A DNA stretch of 64,000 bases from Escherichia coli. Its GTDB lineage: Bacteria; Pseudomonadota; Gammaproteobacteria; Enterobacterales; Enterobacteriaceae. Each line of letters starts with the position of its first letter. The first letter of the stretch is position 1. Of the stretch, positions 6,168 through 15,042 are shown one piece after another. A program made the position numbers and the translations under genes. The notes under the pieces are model-generated. The model saw nothing but the letters and a program-made list of their open reading frames with translations, searched no databases and was not told the origin of the DNA. Location: assembly GCF_024700885.2 (NCBI RefSeq), contig NZ_CP117016.1; one strand, 5' to 3'.

Positions 6168-7325
6168 TTAATCGTCGTCCTGTGGCAGTTCCAGAATCTT
6201 GATCGCGTTCGAATCCACCACGCCACCGCCTAAATATTTCTGCGTGAAAATTTTGATGAAGCCCGGCTCTGTGAGGTTGTCCGGTCTGGTGCGAACACCT
6301 GTTTCGTGATCAACAATGTAGTAACCGCGTTTGAAGTCACCCAGGGCAATAACGTTATCCGGCATAAACTCCAGATATTCGACCGGAAGGCCCAGTAACG
6401 TATCAGGATCACCCGCCTGTAAACGGTCGCGCCAGATGTAATCACCGTTCGCGTTCTTCACCTTCTGAAGTTTTGCCGCCGTCGTGGAGTTAACCACCCA
6501 GACCGCGTTTTTGCGGTATTTTTTACGTAATGCAAATTTCAGGTCGATCAGCGGGTCCGCAGATGTCCACGCCAGAGATTCGGAAGGTTTAATTACCTGC
6601 AACGTACCAAAATCACGCTCTTTGTCGTTCTTCTCTGCACGGGGTACGGATAAAAAGCCTTTTGCTTTTTTGTCACCGTCGCCCACAACCAGATCGCTTT
6701 CTTCGGTTTCCGTGAAGTTGTCGCCAATCTCGCCCGTCAGCCATGAAAGGATGTCCACATCGGAAAAATCCACGATTTCCTGCGTGGTGCGCGGGTACGC
6801 ATAGACCGGATACAGCTTAATGCTCACCTCGTTAATCTGCGGGGTGCTGGTCTGTTCGCGTGCCTTACCCTCTTCACCGTGGTTAACGGTCGCACCGCCA
6901 GCGGAAACAAGCTGCTTAAACTCGTTGCTGCTGATTTTCTTCACGGTACAGATGCGGCGCATGGTGGATTCATCCGTCAGCATTCGCATGATTTCGGTGT
7001 TCAGTTCGGGGATAACGGTATAACCACCATCAGCGGGAACGCCTGTACTTAATGCGCGGGTTTCACCTGTCAGAATGTAGTGACGTAGTTCGGCTGGGTC
7101 AGTGGTCTGACTGCTTTTACCTGGCTTGCTGCGCTCTTCGTCTGCAATGGCTTCAAGGCGGGAAATGTCTTTATCGAGGGATTCAGCTTTAGCGCGTAAT
7201 TCGTCAAATTTTGCGCCCTCAGCATCGTTAAGACTGCGGTTTTCTTTTTCCGCGTTCTCCAGCATGTCGCGCATCTGATTTTTAATGGCGGTTTTCTGCT
7301 GGCGTAATTCGATTATTCTCGGCAT
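6168..7325 (-). CDS. Major capsid protein (HK97 fold) with N-terminal delta/scaffold domain
   Basis: 385-aa ORF with a coiled-coil-rich N-terminus followed by HK97-like capsid region. Confidence 0.85.
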   Translation of the reverse strand: MPRIIELRQQKTAIKNQMRDMLENAEKENRSLNDAEGAKFDELRAKAESLDKDISRLEAIADEERSKPGKSSQTTDPAELRHYILTGETRALSTGVPADGGYTVIPELNTEIMRMLTDESTMRRICTVKKISSNEFKQLVSAGGATVNHGEEGKAREQTSTPQINEVSIKLYPVYAYPRTTQEIVDFSDVDILSWLTGEIGDNFTETEESDLVVGDGDKKAKGFLSVPRAEKNDKERDFGTLQVIKPSESLAWTSADPLIDLKFALRKKYRKNAVWVVNSTTAAKLQKVKNANGDYIWRDRLQAGDPDTLLGLPVEYLEFMPDNVIALGDFKRGYYIVDHETGVRTRPDNLTEPGFIKIFTQKYLGGGVVDSNAIKILELPQDDD

Positions 7326-8583: not shown

Positions 8584-8629
8584 ATTTATTTTTACCCCCT
8601 CGTTTAAAAAGTTTTGAGTTGTGCCTCCC

Positions 8630-8860
8630 CTTGTCTACCTTATCTACCTTAGTGGCCCTCATACCAGTAATGGCGCGGCTTTCAGCGGGGTAGAGTGCTT
8701 TTATCCACTATCTACCCCGTGTCTACCTCCCTGTCTGATTCAGGTAAAATCAGGTAGAGAGGGTAGATAGTGGGTAGACAGTAAAAAAAGGTTATCTACC
8801 TAACTTAATGCACTGAATTAAATGTATTTTTCTTTACTCAGGTAGACAGGGTAGACAGCA
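8630..8860. repeat. Iteron array, putative island replication origin
   Basis: Ten or more copies of T(A/G)TCTACC in both orientations (e.g. tgtctacct, tatctacct, caggtagagagggtagatagtgggtagacag, caggtagacagggtagacag) immediately 3' of the primase gene. Confidence 0.7.
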
Positions 8861-8871
8861 ATTACAAAAAA

Positions 8872-10626
8872 TTATAAAAACGCGTCGCACTCGTCTGTTG
8901 TTATTGCGTTAGTCTGCGTTACTCCCTTAACTTTCCGCGTAATATATTCATGTCCGTAAACTTTCGCGGCTGGCTTCATAGCCTTGCCAAAGTCATTTAC
9001 GTTTAGCGGTTTGCTCCTGCCTGCGTACGCCATAAACGCCAGATAGACGCGGTAAAGGCTGTTTCTGGTCGTGTACTTCACTGAATCGCCACCGCCGCCC
9101 ATCATCAGGCCGCGTGCTTCCTCCAGAAAATTCAGGAACTGGCAAAACTCAATAACCGGATCCGTCTGTTGCTTTATTGCCAGAGCTTCATCACCGTCAC
9201 GCTGTTCCAGTAGTAAAGCCCGTGCCTTCTCAGGGTCGGTAAAGTTCGCCAGCAATCGGCGGATAATGACAGGGATTTCAGCCGCGATCTTTTCCGGTAG
9301 CTCCCTGTCTTTTTCGGCCTCACTGACGATATTGTCGAAACGGAAAATCACGCGACGACGTGCCACACCTCCGGCCCGTTCGGTGAATATCATCGGGTTA
9401 TTGTTGGTCGCCAGCACCACCGCCCTGATTACCGCCGTGAAACGCTTTTCGTATTTCGGGTTAATTTCCACGGGGTCACCGCCCGTGATTTTCTTGATGC
9501 CCGTTCCTTCGCCTGTATATTTCGGCTGGTCAGCCAGGACGATAAGACGACTCCCGACAACCTGCGCACGTCCACCAGCATCATCAAGCGATGTCATTTC
9601 AGCGCTTACCGTGTTCTGTTTCCCTGCCAGAAGGCTGGCTATGTGTGTGAATGTACTTTTACCGCTCCCGCCGTCTCCGGTGGCCTCAATAAACATCTGC
9701 CAGTCGTACCGGTTCGCCATAATCATGTACAGCGCGGCACATATACGCATCATCTTGCGCGGGTCTTTTCCGGCTGCGTGCTCAAGCCATTTATGAAAGT
9801 TTGGCGCGTTATCGCGGATGTTCTCCCCTGGTGCTGGTGGCGTGTACTCAATGCCGTTGTGCGTGGTGATCCAGTTCTCCGGCGTGTGCGGGGAAAATTC
9901 CCCCGTTTTCAGGTCAAGCGCACCATTGGCGAACGGCAACAAATCGCCGGACGGCTCGCCCATTGGTTCGGCAATAACTTTTAACGCTTCCACGGCGTTA
10001 TTGATTACGCGCTTGCTGAAAGTGGCCCTGTGCTCTGAATAGATCGCCACCATTTCGCGGCTAAGTTCCATTGTGCTGACCGGACACCATACCCCGCCGC
10101 GCCATACGTGAACGATTTCACTTTCAGGATGTACGCAAACGCCATCAAAGCGATCGGCAAGCAGTTGCGCGCGCTCACTGTCCGCCATCTGCGAAAGTTG
10201 CGCCTTTTGCTTTACCGGAAGCTCAATGACCAGACCATCAGAAAGATTCTGGCGCTCACGGGCCAGATATTCGCGCCAGTTCTCCACCTTCTGACCGTGC
10301 ATACCATCAGGGTAAAAATTTGCATCCTGTACGCCTGCCGCCGCCAGCTTCTGACCAATCGCCTTTATCATTACTGGCGCAAGATATCCGGCCCTGAATA
10401 TGCGCACGGATTTTCTGCCTTCCGGCACAATTTGCAGCTTATCCAGTTCGGATAACTGCTGCTCCCCAAGCCACACAGGAGGCTCATTATCTCCGGCCAT
10501 ACGCGCGTCATGTTCCTGCCATTGTTTTGCGTGTGACCAGGCATCACTACCCGCAAAAATAATGACTTCTGTTTCTTTGTGTTTTATGCCGCGTGACTGC
10601 TGTTTTACGTTCGGTGCCAGTTTCAT
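8872..10626 (-). CDS. Replication initiator: phage/plasmid primase with D5/P4-type NTPase (helicase) domain
   Basis: 584-aa ORF with Walker A GDGGSGKST and downstream motifs typical of P4-family primase C-terminal domain; followed by iterons. Confidence 0.8.
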   Translation of the reverse strand: MKLAPNVKQQSRGIKHKETEVIIFAGSDAWSHAKQWQEHDARMAGDNEPPVWLGEQQLSELDKLQIVPEGRKSVRIFRAGYLAPVMIKAIGQKLAAAGVQDANFYPDGMHGQKVENWREYLARERQNLSDGLVIELPVKQKAQLSQMADSERAQLLADRFDGVCVHPESEIVHVWRGGVWCPVSTMELSREMVAIYSEHRATFSKRVINNAVEALKVIAEPMGEPSGDLLPFANGALDLKTGEFSPHTPENWITTHNGIEYTPPAPGENIRDNAPNFHKWLEHAAGKDPRKMMRICAALYMIMANRYDWQMFIEATGDGGSGKSTFTHIASLLAGKQNTVSAEMTSLDDAGGRAQVVGSRLIVLADQPKYTGEGTGIKKITGGDPVEINPKYEKRFTAVIRAVVLATNNNPMIFTERAGGVARRRVIFRFDNIVSEAEKDRELPEKIAAEIPVIIRRLLANFTDPEKARALLLEQRDGDEALAIKQQTDPVIEFCQFLNFLEEARGLMMGGGGDSVKYTTRNSLYRVYLAFMAYAGRSKPLNVNDFGKAMKPAAKVYGHEYITRKVKGVTQTNAITTDECDAFL

Positions 10627-10922
10627 TTTTTACCCCTGAATCCGTTAATCATGGTTTTCAGCTTCTGGATGTTTGCCCGTGCCCTGGCGTTGCTGGTGGA
10701 CACGTTATGCGGCGCGGTCTGTACCAGAGAAAAATCACGCCGGAACTGATAAACAGGCATCACGCAATCATATTCGTAACCTTCACGGCGGTAGGTTACG
10801 CGCCGTTCTTCCACGCCCTTAATCATTACCGTGCCGCCGTACTGGTCGCGGTAAATATCGCCGCGCGTAAATTTAGGGTGAGTGTTGCCACTGGCAGTTA
10901 AGCCAGAATATTTAAGTTTCAT
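10623..10922 (-). CDS. Hypothetical small protein (accessory operon gene 7)
   Basis: 99-aa ORF whose stop overlaps the primase start (ATGA). Confidence 0.5.
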   Translation of the reverse strand: MKLKYSGLTASGNTHPKFTRGDIYRDQYGGTVMIKGVEERRVTYRREGYEYDCVMPVYQFRRDFSLVQTAPHNVSTSNARARANIQKLKTMINGFRGKK

Positions 10923-10927
10923 TATTT

Positions 10928-11161
10928 TTATTCTCCGGTGTGCTGTTCTTTATATCTGTCGTGCAATAGATCTATTTCTTGCAGTTCCATTATTACAGGC
11001 TCAAGAAGCGTTATTAATGCCGTGGCAATTCTTGATTTTTGTTTGTCGCGTTCATTGTCGCCAAGTGTTTCAAGCCATATGCGCAATATTTCCAGCATGT
11101 TTTCACTGTGAGAAAGTGCAAGAAATGCGCGGTCTATTGTTTCGTGGTAAATATCACGCAT
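10928..11161 (-). CDS. Hypothetical small protein (accessory operon gene 6)
   Basis: 77-aa ORF, same strand, tightly packed. Confidence 0.45.
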   Translation of the reverse strand: MRDIYHETIDRAFLALSHSENMLEILRIWLETLGDNERDKQKSRIATALITLLEPVIMELQEIDLLHDRYKEQHTGE

Positions 11162-11387
11162 GGCTTACATCCTCAGGAAATTTTCTTCTATAACGCGCCT
11201 CTGCCACATATTCCGCATAATCGGCGGCGATATTCAGTACATCAAGCCCCGTTGATTTATATTCTCTCGTGGAAAGTAAGAAAAAAGCCGCTCTAATAAG
11301 TTCTGGCATTGACGAAAGCGCATCAGCCGCATCATCAGGAACGCCGGAAAATTCCTGTTTCAGGGAATTAAAACGATCATCACGCAT
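11154..11387 (-). CDS. Hypothetical small protein (accessory operon gene 5)
   Basis: 77-aa acidic ORF overlapping its neighbours by 8 bp. Confidence 0.45.
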   Translation of the reverse strand: MRDDRFNSLKQEFSGVPDDAADALSSMPELIRAAFFLLSTREYKSTGLDVLNIAADYAEYVAEARYRRKFPEDVSHA

Positions 11388-11763
11388 GTTTACCCCCCTG
11401 AATGACCTGATAACCGCAACTGGTCAGCAACTCGATAAATTCCGGCAGTGTGCCGAAACAGCAATCATCACGCAGCCGTTCACAGGATACCTCGACGCCG
11501 TTTTCGTAGTGACTCACCATACATCCGGTAAAATGCAGATCATCATCGTGATGGCTCGTTGACGGCTTAATCAGTCGCGCACGTTCCGCCAGTTCCAGCA
11601 ATGCTTCAACGCTTCCGGCAATTGCACCATCCGGCAGGTGATAATTACGCACTATGCGCCCGTTCTCCACATTGACCAGCAACTGCCCGGTAAATTTCTC
11701 ATCAAACTGAATGCTGTTAAGGTCAGAAATTGACAGATTATGCATGGTGCACCTCCTGCACAT
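11380..11763 (-). CDS. Hypothetical protein (accessory operon gene 4)
   Basis: 127-aa ORF; start may be the internal Met at 11745 (MHNLSI...). Confidence 0.5.
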   Translation of the reverse strand: MCRRCTMHNLSISDLNSIQFDEKFTGQLLVNVENGRIVRNYHLPDGAIAGSVEALLELAERARLIKPSTSHHDDDLHFTGCMVSHYENGVEVSCERLRDDCCFGTLPEFIELLTSCGYQVIQGGKHA

Positions 11764-12016
11764 CAGCCATGATAATTTTTCCGGCCTTATCCAGTGCCTG
11801 ATCGGCTTTTAGCTGCACAAATGCTAAATAATGGAAGATGCATTCTGATTCTCTGGCTGCGTGTTTATGCGCCCTGTCAGCAATAACAGAAATATCAATA
11901 AGCGCGTGCATCAGCGTAGTGAGCGCGGCGGCGGCTGCGTCCGGTGTGGTTTTATTGCACATGTACCCCTCCGCATTTTTTTTCGTTAGAAATAAGCGTT
12001 CTTCTTTCCTGTTCAT
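11738..12016 (-). CDS. Hypothetical small protein (accessory operon gene 3)
   Basis: 92-aa ORF; start may be the internal Met at 11962, which would remove most of the overlap with the upstream gene. Confidence 0.45.
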   Translation of the reverse strand: MNRKEERLFLTKKNAEGYMCNKTTPDAAAAALTTLMHALIDISVIADRAHKHAARESECIFHYLAFVQLKADQALDKAGKIIMADVQEVHHA

Positions 12017-12182
12017 CGCTCAGGAATACGCAGACCTCACCGCTAAGGCGTTTAAGTAAGCCGATGATTGCCCCTGATTCGCTGTCGGTCATCATGCCAG
12101 GGTAATCCTCTGCCAGTGCGCAAATAACTTCGATTTGGTGGGCGCGTTCTGCTGCCTGTTGTAGTGTGATTTCCTGGCTCAT
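11952..12182 (-). CDS. Hypothetical small protein (accessory operon gene 2)
   Basis: 76-aa ORF, start overlaps the stop of the upstream gene. Confidence 0.45.
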   Translation of the reverse strand: MSQEITLQQAAERAHQIEVICALAEDYPGMMTDSESGAIIGLLKRLSGEVCVFLSDEQERRTLISNEKKCGGVHVQ

Positions 12183-12379
12183 AAGCCTACCCCCTGACGA
12201 ATACGGGCAGCAAATACCATCACGCAGCCAGCCGGAGATTGCTGGCGTGCTTCCTGTTCGCTGGTGGCCTCAATGGTAATCACGCGCGGTTGTGCCGTGC
12301 TCAGGGCGATAAAACGCCAGATGTATTTATTCAGGTTGTGCGAGTCCCGCCCTTGCGGGTGTGTGGTATGATTTCTCAT
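12179..12379 (-). CDS. Hypothetical small protein, first gene of leftward operon (Cro-like position)
   Basis: 66-aa ORF starting MRNHTT at 12379; the 340-aa ORF in the track is read-through across the regulatory region. Confidence 0.4.
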   Translation of the reverse strand: MRNHTTHPQGRDSHNLNKYIWRFIALSTAQPRVITIEATSEQEARQQSPAGCVMVFAARIRQGVGL

Positions 12380-12476
12380 AGCTACCTCGATACTTTCGCT
12401 ATCGTTGGTGGTTAGAAGCCCGGTTAGTGTTAGCGCACTGCCGGGTTTCGTCGTTTCTGCACCTTGCGCCAACAAG

Positions 12477-12528
12477 GTGTTGAACACCAATTTAAACCCA
12501 GGTGTTAAACACGTCAAGTGTTGAACAC
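12477..12528. promoter_or_regulatory. Three palindromic operators GTGTTnAACAC between divergent promoters
   Basis: gtgttgaacac (12477..12487), gtgttaaacac (12502..12512), gtgttgaacac (12518..12528) in the gap between divergent gene sets. Confidence 0.6.
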
Positions 12529-12578
12529 TTATTTTTTTTCCTGCATACTGCATTTGTTTTTTATGAGGGGTACACCAC

Positions 12579-12758
12579 ATGGCGACAAAAGCGGTAAACG
12601 CAAAATCACAAACCGTTGCGGCAAGGGTTCCGCATGAAGTTATGAACAATGTTGAGGCGGTAAAAATGCCTGGCGAAAGTACGGGGCAATTTGTTACTGC
12701 GGCATTAAAACGAGAAGTTGAATATCGCCAGCGGCGCAAGGCCAAAGAACCAGAGTAA
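12579..12758 (+). CDS. Putative ribbon-helix-helix transcriptional regulator
   Basis: 59-aa ORF (below the track cutoff) with a Shine-Dalgarno-like gagggg upstream; beta-strand/helix/helix pattern typical of Arc/MetJ/CopG family; adjacent to operators. Confidence 0.5.
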   Translation: MATKAVNAKSQTVAARVPHEVMNNVEAVKMPGESTGQFVTAALKREVEYRQRRKAKEPE

Positions 12759-12800
12759 TCACCATCAGCGCCGTGGTGTAAGGTATTACGGCGCATTGCT

Positions 12801-12989
12801 ATGCAGGACAACACAATGACCGATAAAGAATTGACCAAAACATTATCACCGGCACGGAAAAGACGGCGCAGAAAGATAGAGCATGAATCAGAAAGATTCG
12901 CGCCATGTGCTTTTGCCCTTGAGCAATTCCTTAAAGAGTACAGGGAAAAGCGCTCATTGCAGGTATGGCAACGAACTGAACCAGACTGA
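12801..12989 (+). CDS. Hypothetical small basic protein
   Basis: 62-aa ORF downstream of the RHH gene on the same strand, followed by a terminator. Confidence 0.4.
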   Translation: MQDNTMTDKELTKTLSPARKRRRRKIEHESERFAPCAFALEQFLKEYREKRSLQVWQRTEPD

Positions 12990-13083
12990 TTGCATTGCCC
13001 ACCAGCCTGATAACGGCTATCATCCCCGTGCTTATGTTTGGGATCACACACACAAACGGCGCAGCGGGTTATCTGTTCAGAAA

Positions 13084-13113
13084 GGCGGCTCCATTTCGGG
13101 GCCGCTTTTTTTA
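13084..13113 (+). terminator. Rho-independent terminator of rightward regulatory transcript
   Basis: Hairpin gcggctcc-attt-cggggccgc followed by TTTTTTT. Confidence 0.55.
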
Positions 13114-13258
13114 TACCTGAAAAACCCCAATTTTGTTGTTTTTCAGTTTCACCAGGGCGAACGAATCCCCGCCCACGTTCTGGCGTATATTCAATCTTCA
13201 TGGTTATAGCTCTGTGTTCAGATGATTGATGTGTGGCGGCTGCGTGCCGCCAGCGTGA

Positions 13259-13528
13259 TTAATGAACTGCCTTGCAGCTATCCTTCCAGGCCAGAACCTC
13301 GGATAAAGACCAGCCAACGGAACGACCGCCAAGTTTACGACGTGATGGGAATTGTCCGGCCTTTTCCAGGCGGTAGCGACACGTACGGCTAAGGCCGGTT
13401 AGTTTTTCGCATTCTTTTTCACGTATAAACCGATCAGTGCTTAACACTATTGCCCCCCTTTCGTTTCTTAAAGAGTCATCAGGTGTCTTATTGTGTCGTA
13501 TTGTTCCCGCTAGAGTGATGAATGGCAA
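13259..13528 (-). CDS. alpA: AlpA-family phage transcriptional regulator / excisionase-like
   Basis: 89-aa ORF; C-terminal region ...LTGLSRTCRYRLEKAGQFPSRRKLGGRSVGWSLSEVLAW matches AlpA-family pattern; adjacent to int; true start may be downstream. Confidence 0.8.
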   Translation of the reverse strand: MPFITLAGTIRHNKTPDDSLRNERGAIVLSTDRFIREKECEKLTGLSRTCRYRLEKAGQFPSRRKLGGRSVGWSLSEVLAWKDSCKAVH

Positions 13529-13720
13529 ATACTGAGGATGTATGATTTACAGAAAATGAAACAGTAAGAATAAAATTTTTTAAATTCATGTTAATACAAA
13601 GGCATAAAATATTGTTCCATGCCTTTTTTCTCGCTCTTTAAAGAGTGATTCGCTAGTGTACAAAAAACCAGTAACGCATTAAAAATCAGCTACTTATAAA
13701 TCCGTACGCTTTTTCGCCTC

Positions 13721-13765
13721 TTGTTCGTAGTTGTTCCACATTGTTGCTCATTGTTGCACGTTGTA
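13721..13765. promoter_or_regulatory. Five 10-bp phased TTGTT repeats (reverse-complement of AACAA array) between int and alpA
   Basis: ttgttcgtag ttgttccaca ttgttgctca ttgttgcacg ttgta at exact 10-bp spacing. Confidence 0.5.
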
Positions 13766-13812
13766 TCTGTTCGCATATCCAGTATGCGCATACTGAAAAA
13801 ACACGAAAAAAA

Positions 13813-15042
13813 TTATTTTCTTCTGGCTACGGGTAGCGTGGTTACGTTTTCATGTGTTCCCGCCAGTATCCCTAACCGCTCCGTCCACATATCCAGCGCA
13901 TTGCGTTTCGCATCCAGATAACGGGAATGATTATAAACTCGCTGCATTCCTGGCATCTGGTGGCCTGTAAGCTGCTCCACGACATGCGGATCAACGCCTA
14001 AATCGTTCAGCATGGTTGTAAAGGTGCGCCGGATGTCATGCAGTGACCAGTGAGGGTGATTAAGCCTCCTGTACGCTAATCTTCCATACTGCGATACGCT
14101 GGCCTCCTGTTTCACTTCCCCCAGCAATAAGCCCGTGTGCCTGTTCTGCTCCACCAGCTGCGTGACGAACGGCAGGATCGCTTCCGGTATGGGCCGGAAT
14201 ATTGCGACCTTCGTTTTGCTGTGCTCCTTCGGAACGGTCCATAGCATTTCCGTAAAATCCCACTCCCCGATCTCCGATAACCTCAGTTCTACCGTTCTGG
14301 CTCCGAAGACAATCAGGAGGCGGATTAACGCGACGTAGTAAGGGGAGAATATTTTTTTGTCCAGTGCCTGCAATAATTCGCCAAGTTCTTTGTTACTTAA
14401 GACACGTTCGCTTATATCCGGTTTTTTCCCAACGTCCGCAACGTTCAGATCGTCCAGAACGTTGCTGATTGCATAGCGCCGCCTACGGCAGAACTTAAGC
14501 GCCTGTTTGCACGCCTGTAGCACGAATCCGGCAGTAACAGGCGTTCGCTTTGCCACCTGGTCAAAACAGGCCAGCCAGTGCCGTAGCTCGCATTTATCCA
14601 GCGGCATAGCACCAATCTGCTGTATTACGTGATTATTAAGTCGCCTTTTCAGGGCGATATAATCCACGCGGTTTTCCTTTACGTAATACTCAAGCCAGTA
14701 GGTGAGCGCATCGCCAACCGTTACGGGCTTTAACGCTTCCTGTACGGTGTAATTCATCTCATGACGTGGATTTTTCCCCTCAGCCAGCCATGTGCGACAC
14801 TGTGCGGCTTTTTCCCTGGCTGCTTTCAGGCTCAGATCAGGATAACTTCCCAGCTTAATGCGTTCGGGTCGTGTCTCCCTTCCCGTTCCGGCCCTGTATG
14901 TGAAATACCAGGTCAATTTCCCTGATGTTAAATATTTCACGCTCAGGTTTCCGCCATCACTATAAAACGTGTTTTTCTCCGCTGGCTTACCATGAAGTTT
15001 CCTTAGCAAGGTATCGCTCAGTTTGTTCATTGCTCTGCTCAC
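13813..15042 (-). CDS. int: Tyrosine-type site-specific integrase (P4-like)
   Basis: 409-aa ORF with catalytic-domain motifs (HDIRRTF, GHQ, VYNHSRY) at the island end next to the chromosomal junction. Confidence 0.92.
   Translation of the reverse strand: MSRAMNKLSDTLLRKLHGKPAEKNTFYSDGGNLSVKYLTSGKLTWYFTYRAGTGRETRPERIKLGSYPDLSLKAAREKAAQCRTWLAEGKNPRHEMNYTVQEALKPVTVGDALTYWLEYYVKENRVDYIALKRRLNNHVIQQIGAMPLDKCELRHWLACFDQVAKRTPVTAGFVLQACKQALKFCRRRRYAISNVLDDLNVADVGKKPDISERVLSNKELGELLQALDKKIFSPYYVALIRLLIVFGARTVELRLSEIGEWDFTEMLWTVPKEHSKTKVAIFRPIPEAILPFVTQLVEQNRHTGLLLGEVKQEASVSQYGRLAYRRLNHPHWSLHDIRRTFTTMLNDLGVDPHVVEQLTGHQMPGMQRVYNHSRYLDAKRNALDMWTERLGILAGTHENVTTLPVARRK

Follow-up and report, generated by a model that had tools for sequence, protein, structure and literature searches.

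Phage-inducible chromosomal islands of the capsid-forming kind (cf-PICIs) are described in the literature as elements of about 15 kb that carry int, alpA and a replication gene as well as their own HK97-type capsid, protease, portal, connectors and terminase, and that have no tail genes; AlpA is known from the literature as the PICI activator. The present analysis deals with an Escherichia coli island which, by its gene set, is a PICI of this capsid-forming type of about 15 kb, and which lies in a chromosomal stretch of 64,000 nucleotides (nt) from contig NZ_CP117016.1 (assembly GCF_024700885.2), called here the window. It focuses on seven consecutive minus-strand open reading frames (ORF1–ORF7, positions 10623–12379) situated between the operator/promoter region and the primase gene of the island. 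What these seven genes make up is no new system but the usual early operon of a satellite family that is widespread, and its first ribosome-binding site appears to be covered by a predicted cis-antisense RNA resembling SymR of E. coli K-12.

In the immI operon of the phages P1 and P7 (c4, icd, ant), blocked translation of the leader silences the distal genes. The likeness to the window lies in the Icd-named leader cistron, which is coupled to the downstream genes, and in its ribosome-binding site being targeted by a small antisense RNA. The c4 RNA of P1, however, is a trans-acting RNA encoded upstream on the same strand, whereas the window RNA is predicted to be a true cis-antisense transcript; the distal gene of immI is an antirepressor, whereas those of the window are replication genes. 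In addition, ORF1 shows no similarity to a true phage at E up to 10, and the Rfam C4 RNA (RF01695) finds no match at E up to 1 on either strand of positions 10500–13900. The immI operon was reportedly treated in Citron & Schuster 1990, Biere et al. 1992 and Riedel et al. 1993.

In the SymE–SymR pair of K-12, the RNA SymR, 77 nt in length, faces the 5' end of symE; its promoter is situated within symE, and the translation of SymE is repressed by it. The window shares with this pair a two-hairpin RNA of ~77–84 nt that covers the Shine-Dalgarno sequence of the partner, has its predicted promoter within the partner ORF and, with its 5' end, complements the start codon of the partner; the covariance-model matches are, moreover, reciprocal and in the same register. 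The partner in the window is, by contrast, Icd-like and not the AbrB-fold SymE, and it heads an eight-gene operon; no LexA control is evident there, the operators lying instead beside a divergent YlcI/YnfO-family gene. The left operon of the satellite P4 (CI RNA, epsilon, orf151, alpha primase), a replication operon, also has small ORFs before a primase-helicase gene and a leader-region RNA controlling expression. The CI RNA is, unlike the window RNA, processed from the sense leader and causes premature termination. The homology between P4 and PICIs is only distant and limited to Int, AlpA and Pri-Rep (Fillol-Salom 2018), and ORF1–ORF7 were not found in the phage collection beyond one PICI-like record and weak matches of ORF2.

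The closest relatives are the early regions, from alpA to pri-rep, that other PICIs and cf-PICIs of E. coli carry, for example the island of the OI-51/CP-933C type in O157:H7 with rgdR, and EcCICFT073. They have in common with the window island the succession int, alpA, Icd-like, small ORFs, DUF4222/RgdR, replication gene, SSB, PerC and packaging module. ORF5, ORF6 and ORF7 are 97–100% identical to O157 proteins. The O157 island has four small cistrons between the Icd-like gene and the replicase, against seven in the window island; it encodes one fused protein of 154 amino acids (aa), whereas ORF3 and ORF5 of the window are separate, with the duplicated ORF4 between them; and its replicase is a RepA helicase, whereas that of the window is of the primase type. 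A related island is known from ED1a between ydgD and ydgG, the same site as that of the window island. The features of the operon and its leader are as follows (pI, isoelectric point; dN/dS, ratio of non-synonymous to synonymous substitution rates).

12579–12758, plus strand: divergent YlcI/YnfO-family gene, 59 aa, with a ribbon-helix-helix-like pattern, candidate operator-binding repressor (NF041551, 59.7 bits).
12489–12517, minus strand: sigma-70-like operon promoter, −35 TTGACG and −10 TAAATT, from a consensus scan.
12475–12528, no strand given: three operator-like palindromes GTGTT(G/A)AACAC (GTGTTNAACAC sites) flanking or overlapping the promoter, from repeat matching.
12377–12460, plus strand: predicted SymR-like cis-antisense RNA with two hairpins and a U-rich tail, covering the ORF1 start codon, the Shine-Dalgarno sequence and ~80% of the mRNA leader.
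12364–12372, plus strand: TGGTATGAT, a predicted −10-like element of the extended type serving the antisense RNA and lying within codons 3–5 of ORF1, read from the sequence.
12179–12379, minus strand: ORF1, 66 aa, pI 10.7, Icd-like leader cistron (NF033153; phrog_6196, E 1e-45; dN/dS 0.14–0.34), with GAGG 7 nt before the ATG.
11952–12182, minus strand: ORF2, 76 aa, acidic, family B (phrog_1478, E 3e-28), with an ATGA overlap with ORF1; also in loci L003 and L009.
11738–11962, minus strand: ORF3, 74 aa, family C (phrog_5146), starting at M19 of a 92-aa ORF as in the PGAP call and the phrog_5146 alignment, with a GGAGGGG Shine-Dalgarno sequence; dN/dS 0.33–0.66.
11380–11745, minus strand: ORF4, 121 aa, acidic, family D (phrog_340, E 5e-29, two stretches).
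11154–11387, minus strand: ORF5, 77 aa, acidic, family E (phrog_24341; C-terminal half of phrog_2512), with an 8-nt ATGCGTGA overlap; dN/dS 0.12–0.17.
10928–11161, minus strand: ORF6, 77 aa, acidic, family F (phrog_2196), with the motif L..WL[DE]; the most widespread cassette of unknown function.
10623–10922, minus strand: ORF7, 99 aa, pI 10.2, DUF4222, RgdR orthologue (Pfam PF13973, E 4.7e-23, full model 1–53).
8872–10626, minus strand: replication gene of the primase/helicase type, 584 aa, named "DNA primase family protein" in RefSeq, with an ATGA overlap with ORF7.

The operon and its coupling are real, since the junctions, the Shine-Dalgarno sites, the lack of a terminator-like site on the minus strand within 10623–12379, the reading-frame coverage and the dN/dS values well below 1 all speak for them. 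From ORF1 onward the cistrons overlap by 4, 11, 8, 8 and 8 nt; a 5-nt gap then precedes ORF7, which in turn overlaps the primase gene by the 4-nt ATGA. Every cistron, the primase included, is preceded at 5–10 nt by a Shine-Dalgarno-like site. Reading frames of 60 aa or more take up 0.93 of one strand, compared with 0.50 ± 0.12 (maximum 0.88) in 300 dinucleotide shuffles, and the pairwise dN/dS against diverged orthologues is 0.12–0.66 for all seven ORFs where dS is informative; judged by these ratios, all seven are under purifying selection. The preliminary description of this DNA, made from the sequence alone, had proposed a translationally coupled small-gene operon between the operator/promoter region and the primase of a phage satellite, which the junctions and Shine-Dalgarno sites bear out. 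Its seven minus-strand ORFs of 66–127 aa with overlapping ends are indeed consecutive and occupy 10623–12379, but one junction is the gap just mentioned and two starts had to be moved: that of ORF3 to the annotated, homologue-supported ATG at 11962 (74 aa, not 92) and that of ORF4 to the equally annotated and homologue-supported ATG at 11745 (121 aa, not 127). Both revised starts fit the PHROG alignments and the N-termini of the orthologues.

The leader of this operon is where the predicted antisense RNA lies. A scan of the whole window against Rfam at the gathering threshold gave no match; a scan thresholded by E-value gave a single one, SymR (RF01809), at 12380–12452 on the plus strand, over the full model and with 33.3 bits. 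A covariance model, R1, built from eight PICI leaders finds one copy in the window (12377–12460) and, at the same place and in the same orientation, copies in 18 other loci, over nine genera, with scores of 37–98 bits at these 18 loci, compared with at most 22 bits for matches on the sense strand. In the reciprocal test, K-12 symR was the top match of R1 in its 6-kb region, in the identical register, the 5' CAU of the RNA being the complement of the partner ATG. Over the 19 loci, 98.1% of the cells of the two-hairpin structure are paired, and changes on both sides were seen in 12 of 26 pairs, against 5.4 ± 1.2 in shuffles (0 of 500 reaching it) and 1–4 when the partners were slid. G·U pairs make up 58 of 418 cells, which would be A·C mismatches on the mRNA strand, and RNAalifold gives −25.3 kcal/mol for the antisense and −17.7 for the sense strand (mean single-sequence energies −33.7 and −22.6). 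Therefore, based on the G·U pairs and the folding energies, the structured molecule should be the antisense RNA. The loop of hairpin 1 holds the anti-Shine-Dalgarno CCUC, and a U-rich tract follows hairpin 2. In each of the 19 loci, a conserved −10-like element (TATGAT, TATAAT, TATGCT or TAGACT) precedes the 5' end of the RNA by 4–10 nt, though the N-terminus of ORF1 is otherwise variable.

The antisense RNA element occurs in 1322 of 5426 complete E. coli genomes (24%), with up to six copies, nearly always under a coding-sequence (CDS) call named "Icd-like" or "ash family", and it is never annotated as RNA. Its identity with Esr41, a small RNA of enterohaemorrhagic E. coli, was considered and rejected, as Esr41 lies in OI-43. 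Literature searches for a link between SymR, Icd and PICIs gave nothing relevant, the "icd" matches being isocitrate dehydrogenase, and a ciprofloxacin transcriptome paper was uninformative for CP-933C; a prior description of the antisense RNA was not found in the searchable literature, which does not prove that none exists.

As for the remaining part of the leader, the −35 sequence TTGAC(A/G)TG is invariant across nine otherwise diverged leaders, and the divergent YlcI/YnfO arrangement recurs in loci L003–L008, the Klebsiella locus L006 among them. An unannotated basic 57-aa ORF lies just after the YlcI/YnfO gene at 12816–12989 on the plus strand (phrog_21027, E 1.6e-15), 67% identical to an annotated hypothetical protein of another island (L005, 4438–4638); it probably forms a two-gene divergent unit with the YlcI/YnfO gene.

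With regard to the individual products, all seven match PHROG families strongly, ORF2–ORF6 at E 1e-28 to 1e-49. The statement of the preliminary description that none resembles a family that can be named does not hold, since ORF1 belongs to the Icd-like NF033153 and ORF7 to DUF4222/RgdR; that most of the products are without known function agrees with ORF2–ORF6 matching PHROG families of unknown function. Basic proteins (pI above 10) are encoded by ORF1 and ORF7, acidic ones (pI 4.8–6.3) by ORF2–ORF6.

ORF1 scores 69.9 bits against the NCBIfam Icd-like model (cut-off 25) over residues 19–62, and it is a putative division inhibitor, by family membership, as well as the leader cistron. The 66-aa form starting at 12379 is preferred over the RefSeq call of 133 aa from 12580 because the orthologues are called at 65–68 aa and the longer form starts upstream of the conserved promoter; the latter call (12179–12580) was thus rejected. 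A 340-aa frame at 12179–13201 on the minus strand was likewise rejected as a real gene: it is not conserved as one gene, it is antisense to two conserved plus-strand genes, and the orthologues have 65–68 aa. It should be pointed out here that RefSeq splits this 340-codon frame into the 133-aa "Icd-like" CDS (12179–12580) and an "Icd-like pseudogene" (12754–13201), that the frame also crosses the promoter and the operators, and that a similar 324-aa frame is present in the Klebsiella element L006. The frame is, as far as can be judged from the sequences, most likely an annotation artefact hiding the leader and the antisense RNA.

ORF7 is, by sequence, the orthologue of the published regulator RgdR. 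With the DUF4222 protein that takes the same place in the island of the OI-51 type of the O157:H7 strain SS TX 754-1 it shares 98% identity, and the RGD motif of ORF7 is intact (R20, G21, D22, within ...KFTRGDIY...). [quoted passage not shown] The AlphaFold2 (AF2) model of ORF7 displays an SH3/Tudor-like barrel (residues 20–70, pLDDT above 90) followed by a basic C-terminal helix. Some Klebsiella elements are without DUF4222. A promoter-like site, TTAATA-17-AATAAT with a TG extension, was found by consensus match at 10989–11017 on the minus strand, inside ORF6 and ~70 nt upstream of the ORF7 start, and the sole non-overlapping junction of the operon is the A/T-rich 5-nt gap directly before ORF7; the promoter-like site could explain the expression of RgdR in uninduced cells.

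The five proteins between them, ORF2–ORF6, are, according to the searches made, narrow enterobacterial families restricted to satellites. They have no match in NCBIfam, Pfam-A, PADLOC or the PDB; sequence searches of the PDB (phmmer with the concatenated ORF1–ORF7, profiles for ORF1, ORF6 and ORF7) gave nothing below E 0.2. With phmmer against 1.84 billion cluster representatives, ORF2–ORF6 retrieved 94 clusters in total. The operon block finds no DNA match among 50,697 phage records, and tblastn gave phage matches only for ORF1, to a 16.5-kb cf-PICI-like "phage" of Klebsiella, and for ORF2, which has weak homologues (38–41% identity) in Fels-1 and Klebsiella temperate phages. ORF4 is, as seen in the alignment, an internal tandem duplication of a ~45-aa unit (FTGxxxVxxxNG followed by a helix), and its AF2 model, of low confidence (pLDDT 64), contains two repeats of a β-hairpin plus helix. 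Foldseek with this model, the structure-based check for remote homology that had been proposed, revealed no homologue, there being no meaningful match in the PDB (best E 0.57, TM ≤0.28). ORF4 homologues 79–85% identical to it carry a precomputed match to PF27490 "Rem", the ORF4 itself giving none in a Pfam-A scan, and hhalign aligns it with K-12 Rem over 34 columns with 48% probability; ORF4 may thus be called weakly Rem-like in sequence. Its homologues come essentially all from Escherichia and Salmonella. The ORF6 family is present in Escherichia, Klebsiella, Citrobacter, Cedecea, Pectobacterium and Intestinirhabdus, adjoining replicases of unrelated families.

The comparison of islands shows a mosaic. 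Among 5426 complete E. coli genomes, some part of the region is matched in 1820, but a match to 80% or more of it is confined to 115. Across E. coli islands the Icd-like head and the DUF4222 tail are kept, with 1–5 genes between them, and the family of the downstream replicase changes. Clustering the products of nine loci gave seven families, from A (ORF1) through G (ORF7), arranged in the following orders.

This window: A-B-C-D-E-F-G.
O157: A-D(short)-[C+E fused, 154 aa]-F-G.
Other E. coli islands: A-B-C-E-F-G; A-C-D-E-D'-G; A-C-E-F-G; A-X-B-F'-G.
Klebsiella: A-Y-F, then the primase directly.

The same plan—an Icd-like gene, 1–5 small overlapping ORFs and a replicase—recurs in 13 more loci, those of Cedecea, Citrobacter, E. 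albertii, Pantoea, Hafnia, Rahnella, Superficieibacter, Klebsiella, Intestinirhabdus and Pectobacterium; another ten cassette proteins, taken from these genera, have no NCBIfam match, and no PADLOC match at E up to 0.01. Beside the cassettes stand replicases of no fewer than four families that are unrelated to each other (primase-helicase, RepA helicase, DUF927-type and one of 555 aa), and the cassettes, as compared here, do not track the replicase family. A joint of ~10 nt, CATGCGTGAT, is reused at cassette boundaries (11380–11389 and 11154–11163 in the window; loci L002–L022), where one protein ends in "...HA-stop" and the next begins with "MRD...". Read from its sequence, this joint couples translation and offers a recombination joint, which suggests that recombination at such joints drives the shuffling of the cassettes. 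P0027 and P0078 look to be deletion fusions between cassettes; P0079 (477 aa) was rejected as a true fusion protein, as it looks like a run-on artefact. Fusions of modules are represented by the O157 protein of 154 aa (C+E, phrog_2512), by P0151 (C+D) and by P0123 (D+C+D), the last situated in a satellite-like contig with the order AlpA...DUF4222-DUF927. Since the modules C, D and E are thus fused in varied combinations (Rosetta-stone evidence), ORF3, ORF4 and ORF5 would act together, probably as one complex.

The island as a whole occupies positions ~1 to ~15,200 of the window, the window being E. coli chromosome, and is inserted in tqsA (ydgG), between ydgD/mdtIJ and pntAB. Megablast of 10500–12700 revealed 100% identical copies in many complete genomes, of which NZ_CP010240 (locus L001) served as the annotation reference; a window coordinate equals the L001 coordinate minus 1501. 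RefSeq lists there, on the minus strand, integrase, AlpA-type helix-turn-helix protein, Icd-like protein, five hypothetical proteins, DUF4222 and DNA primase family protein, then a hypothetical protein, SSB, PerC, major capsid, HK97 prohead protease and portal, and finally head closure, head-tail connector, HNH, TerS and TerL. The cf-PICI identity follows from this gene set of the annotated 100% identical island, which matches the published architecture: all the genes listed for cf-PICIs are present in L001 between ydgD/tqsA and pntB. The activator gene itself is located as follows.

13259–13447, minus strand: alpA-type helix-turn-helix excisionase/activator gene (RefSeq annotation; phrog_2790).

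The Rfam int-alpA RNA motif (RF02996) was seen in the related island L005 at 7215–7282 on the minus strand, with 45.5 bits, i.e. above the gathering score, and has no match in the window at the gathering threshold. Concerning the primase, its first ~120 residues (listed at 8872–9240) are 40–62% identical in the otherwise unrelated RepA-helicase and DUF927-type replicases of L002 and L012, and in these comparisons they look like a portable module always following DUF4222. In the 288-bp gap directly downstream of the primase gene, at 8627–8861, an iteron of 8–10 nt (GGGTAGACAG / CTGTCTACC) is repeated in at least ten copies in both orientations; the array, to judge by its sequence and place, is probably the replication origin of the island. 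Spurious "microRNA" matches of Rfam fall at the equivalent place in L007 and L008.

Based on the above results, it appears probable that the seven ORFs are promoter-proximal cistrons of the cf-PICI induction and replication operon, silenced by the operators and the antisense RNA through coupling. In the quiescent island, an operator-bound repressor and the SymR-like RNA would jointly block the expression of ORF1, and this block would also keep the distal cistrons and the primase low, because the cistrons are coupled, probably with Rho polarity as in P1 c4-icd-ant. Upon helper-triggered, AlpA-dependent induction the operon would be expressed as a unit; ORF1 may then arrest division, ORF7 (RgdR) would modulate host transcription, and ORF2–ORF6 would be deployed as small protein-binding modulators of host or helper functions, which is what they most likely are, instead of replication accessories or a classical defence system. 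Several points weigh against this proposal. The SymR score of 33.3 bits is below the Rfam gathering score of 61, the antisense RNA has no clear −35 element and its tail is only moderately U-rich; promoter and operators come from consensus or repeat matching, and the YlcI/YnfO protein is a putative repressor. In tblastn against INPHARED (50,697 phage records, E up to 10), ORF1 found only the Klebsiella PICI-like element and chance matches, and the label "division inhibitor" comes from the NCBIfam name alone, since no match to P1 Icd was seen. Nothing but their composition, variability, distribution and fusions speaks for the role proposed for ORF2–ORF6; searches by structure and by profile were fruitless. 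Finally, the RgdR phenotypes come from uninduced O157, and therefore at least the distal part of the operon cannot be fully silent, but must be leaky or served by an internal promoter, for which 11017–10989 is the candidate.

Among the other explanations, the pairing of ORF1 with the antisense RNA could instead be a self-contained type I toxin-antitoxin (addiction) module stabilising the island and not an operon switch. The layout is that of symE/symR and of the hok/sok type, with the RNA over the start codon and the Shine-Dalgarno sequence and a promoter within the toxin ORF, and the name Icd-like implies toxicity; this is plausible but nevertheless unlikely, as ORF1 heads a coupled operon ending in a replicase in 19 of 19 loci examined, and in P1 the downstream ant requires the translation of icd for its expression. 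That all or some of the small ORFs form a novel system of the satellite, directed against phages or interfering with the helper, seems rather unlikely as well. In its favour, gene content is hypervariable among islands that are near-identical otherwise, the families are satellite-restricted, small size and acidity are traits that the products have in common with many phage-protein inhibitors, and in P4 the helper derepressor epsilon lies upstream of alpha. On the other hand, neither the seven ORFs (E up to 1) nor the ten cassette proteins mentioned above match PADLOC-DB 2.0, no enzymatic or sensor domain is found in any ORF, and an operon expected to be off until induction is ill-suited to constitutive defence. 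The preliminary description had held that this position commonly houses helper-interference or anti-phage functions; in the cf-PICI literature, the presumed immune hotspots flank the packaging module on both sides, and the gene downstream of alpA is the only one listed as variable and of unknown function. A defence role is thus unsupported, because matches in PADLOC, NCBIfam (for ORF2–ORF6) and the PDB are lacking and the hotspots known from the literature are elsewhere, and the probable novel anti-phage system suggested there gives way to a known early operon of PICIs and cf-PICIs.

That the ORFs are lysogenic-conversion "morons" reprogramming virulence or motility of the uninduced host, in the manner of RgdR and PerC, is improbable: RgdR activates LEE and type III secretion and represses motility in uninduced O157, a PerC homologue is also on the island and a promoter-like site lies within ORF6 upstream of ORF7, but the cistrons other than ORF7 overlap their neighbours and lack promoters of their own, and Enterobacterales without LEE, both commensal and environmental, carry the same cassettes. 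ORF2–ORF7 could also be replication accessory factors acting in origin remodelling, helicase loading or primase control, as they lie directly upstream of the replicase and are translationally coupled to it, as in many genera the replicase is usually preceded immediately by ORF6 or DUF4222, and as RgdR binds DNA weakly. We regard this as quite improbable, because the cassettes are independent of the replicase family, the same families lying beside at least four unrelated ones, and because the iteron-type origin is placed downstream of the primase, at 8627–8861; the number (1–5) and order of the genes vary, too, and DUF4222 is missing from some Klebsiella elements. There is, lastly, hardly any room for the view that some of the ORFs are chance frames or annotation artefacts, despite their small size and the longer alternative starts of ORF1, ORF3 and ORF4, given that dN/dS is below 1 for all seven, that they have Shine-Dalgarno sites, orthologues in several genera and strong PHROG matches, and that their coverage exceeds that of all 300 shuffles.

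Returning to the induction and replication operon, a more far-reaching version of it may be offered as a tentative possibility. The antisense RNA, together with the YlcI/YnfO repressor, might be the missing immunity switch of PICIs, no master repressor having been identified for those of Gram-negative bacteria, and might keep the entire replication operon off by way of coupled translation and polarity, and ORF2–ORF6—with ORF3, ORF4 and ORF5 as one complex—might represent a diversifying arsenal of inhibitors against helper-phage or host proteins.

For the satellite family, the block offers a compact set of conserved, satellite-restricted proteins with clear cassette boundaries and, from the fusions, hints of their partners, and thus a defined list of targets; for one of its genes, rgdR, a virulence phenotype is already known from the literature. 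The antisense RNA, predicted exactly over the first ribosome-binding site of a replication operon and hidden so far by over-extended "Icd-like" CDS calls, is a directly testable candidate, and it may answer how Gram-negative PICIs are kept silent.

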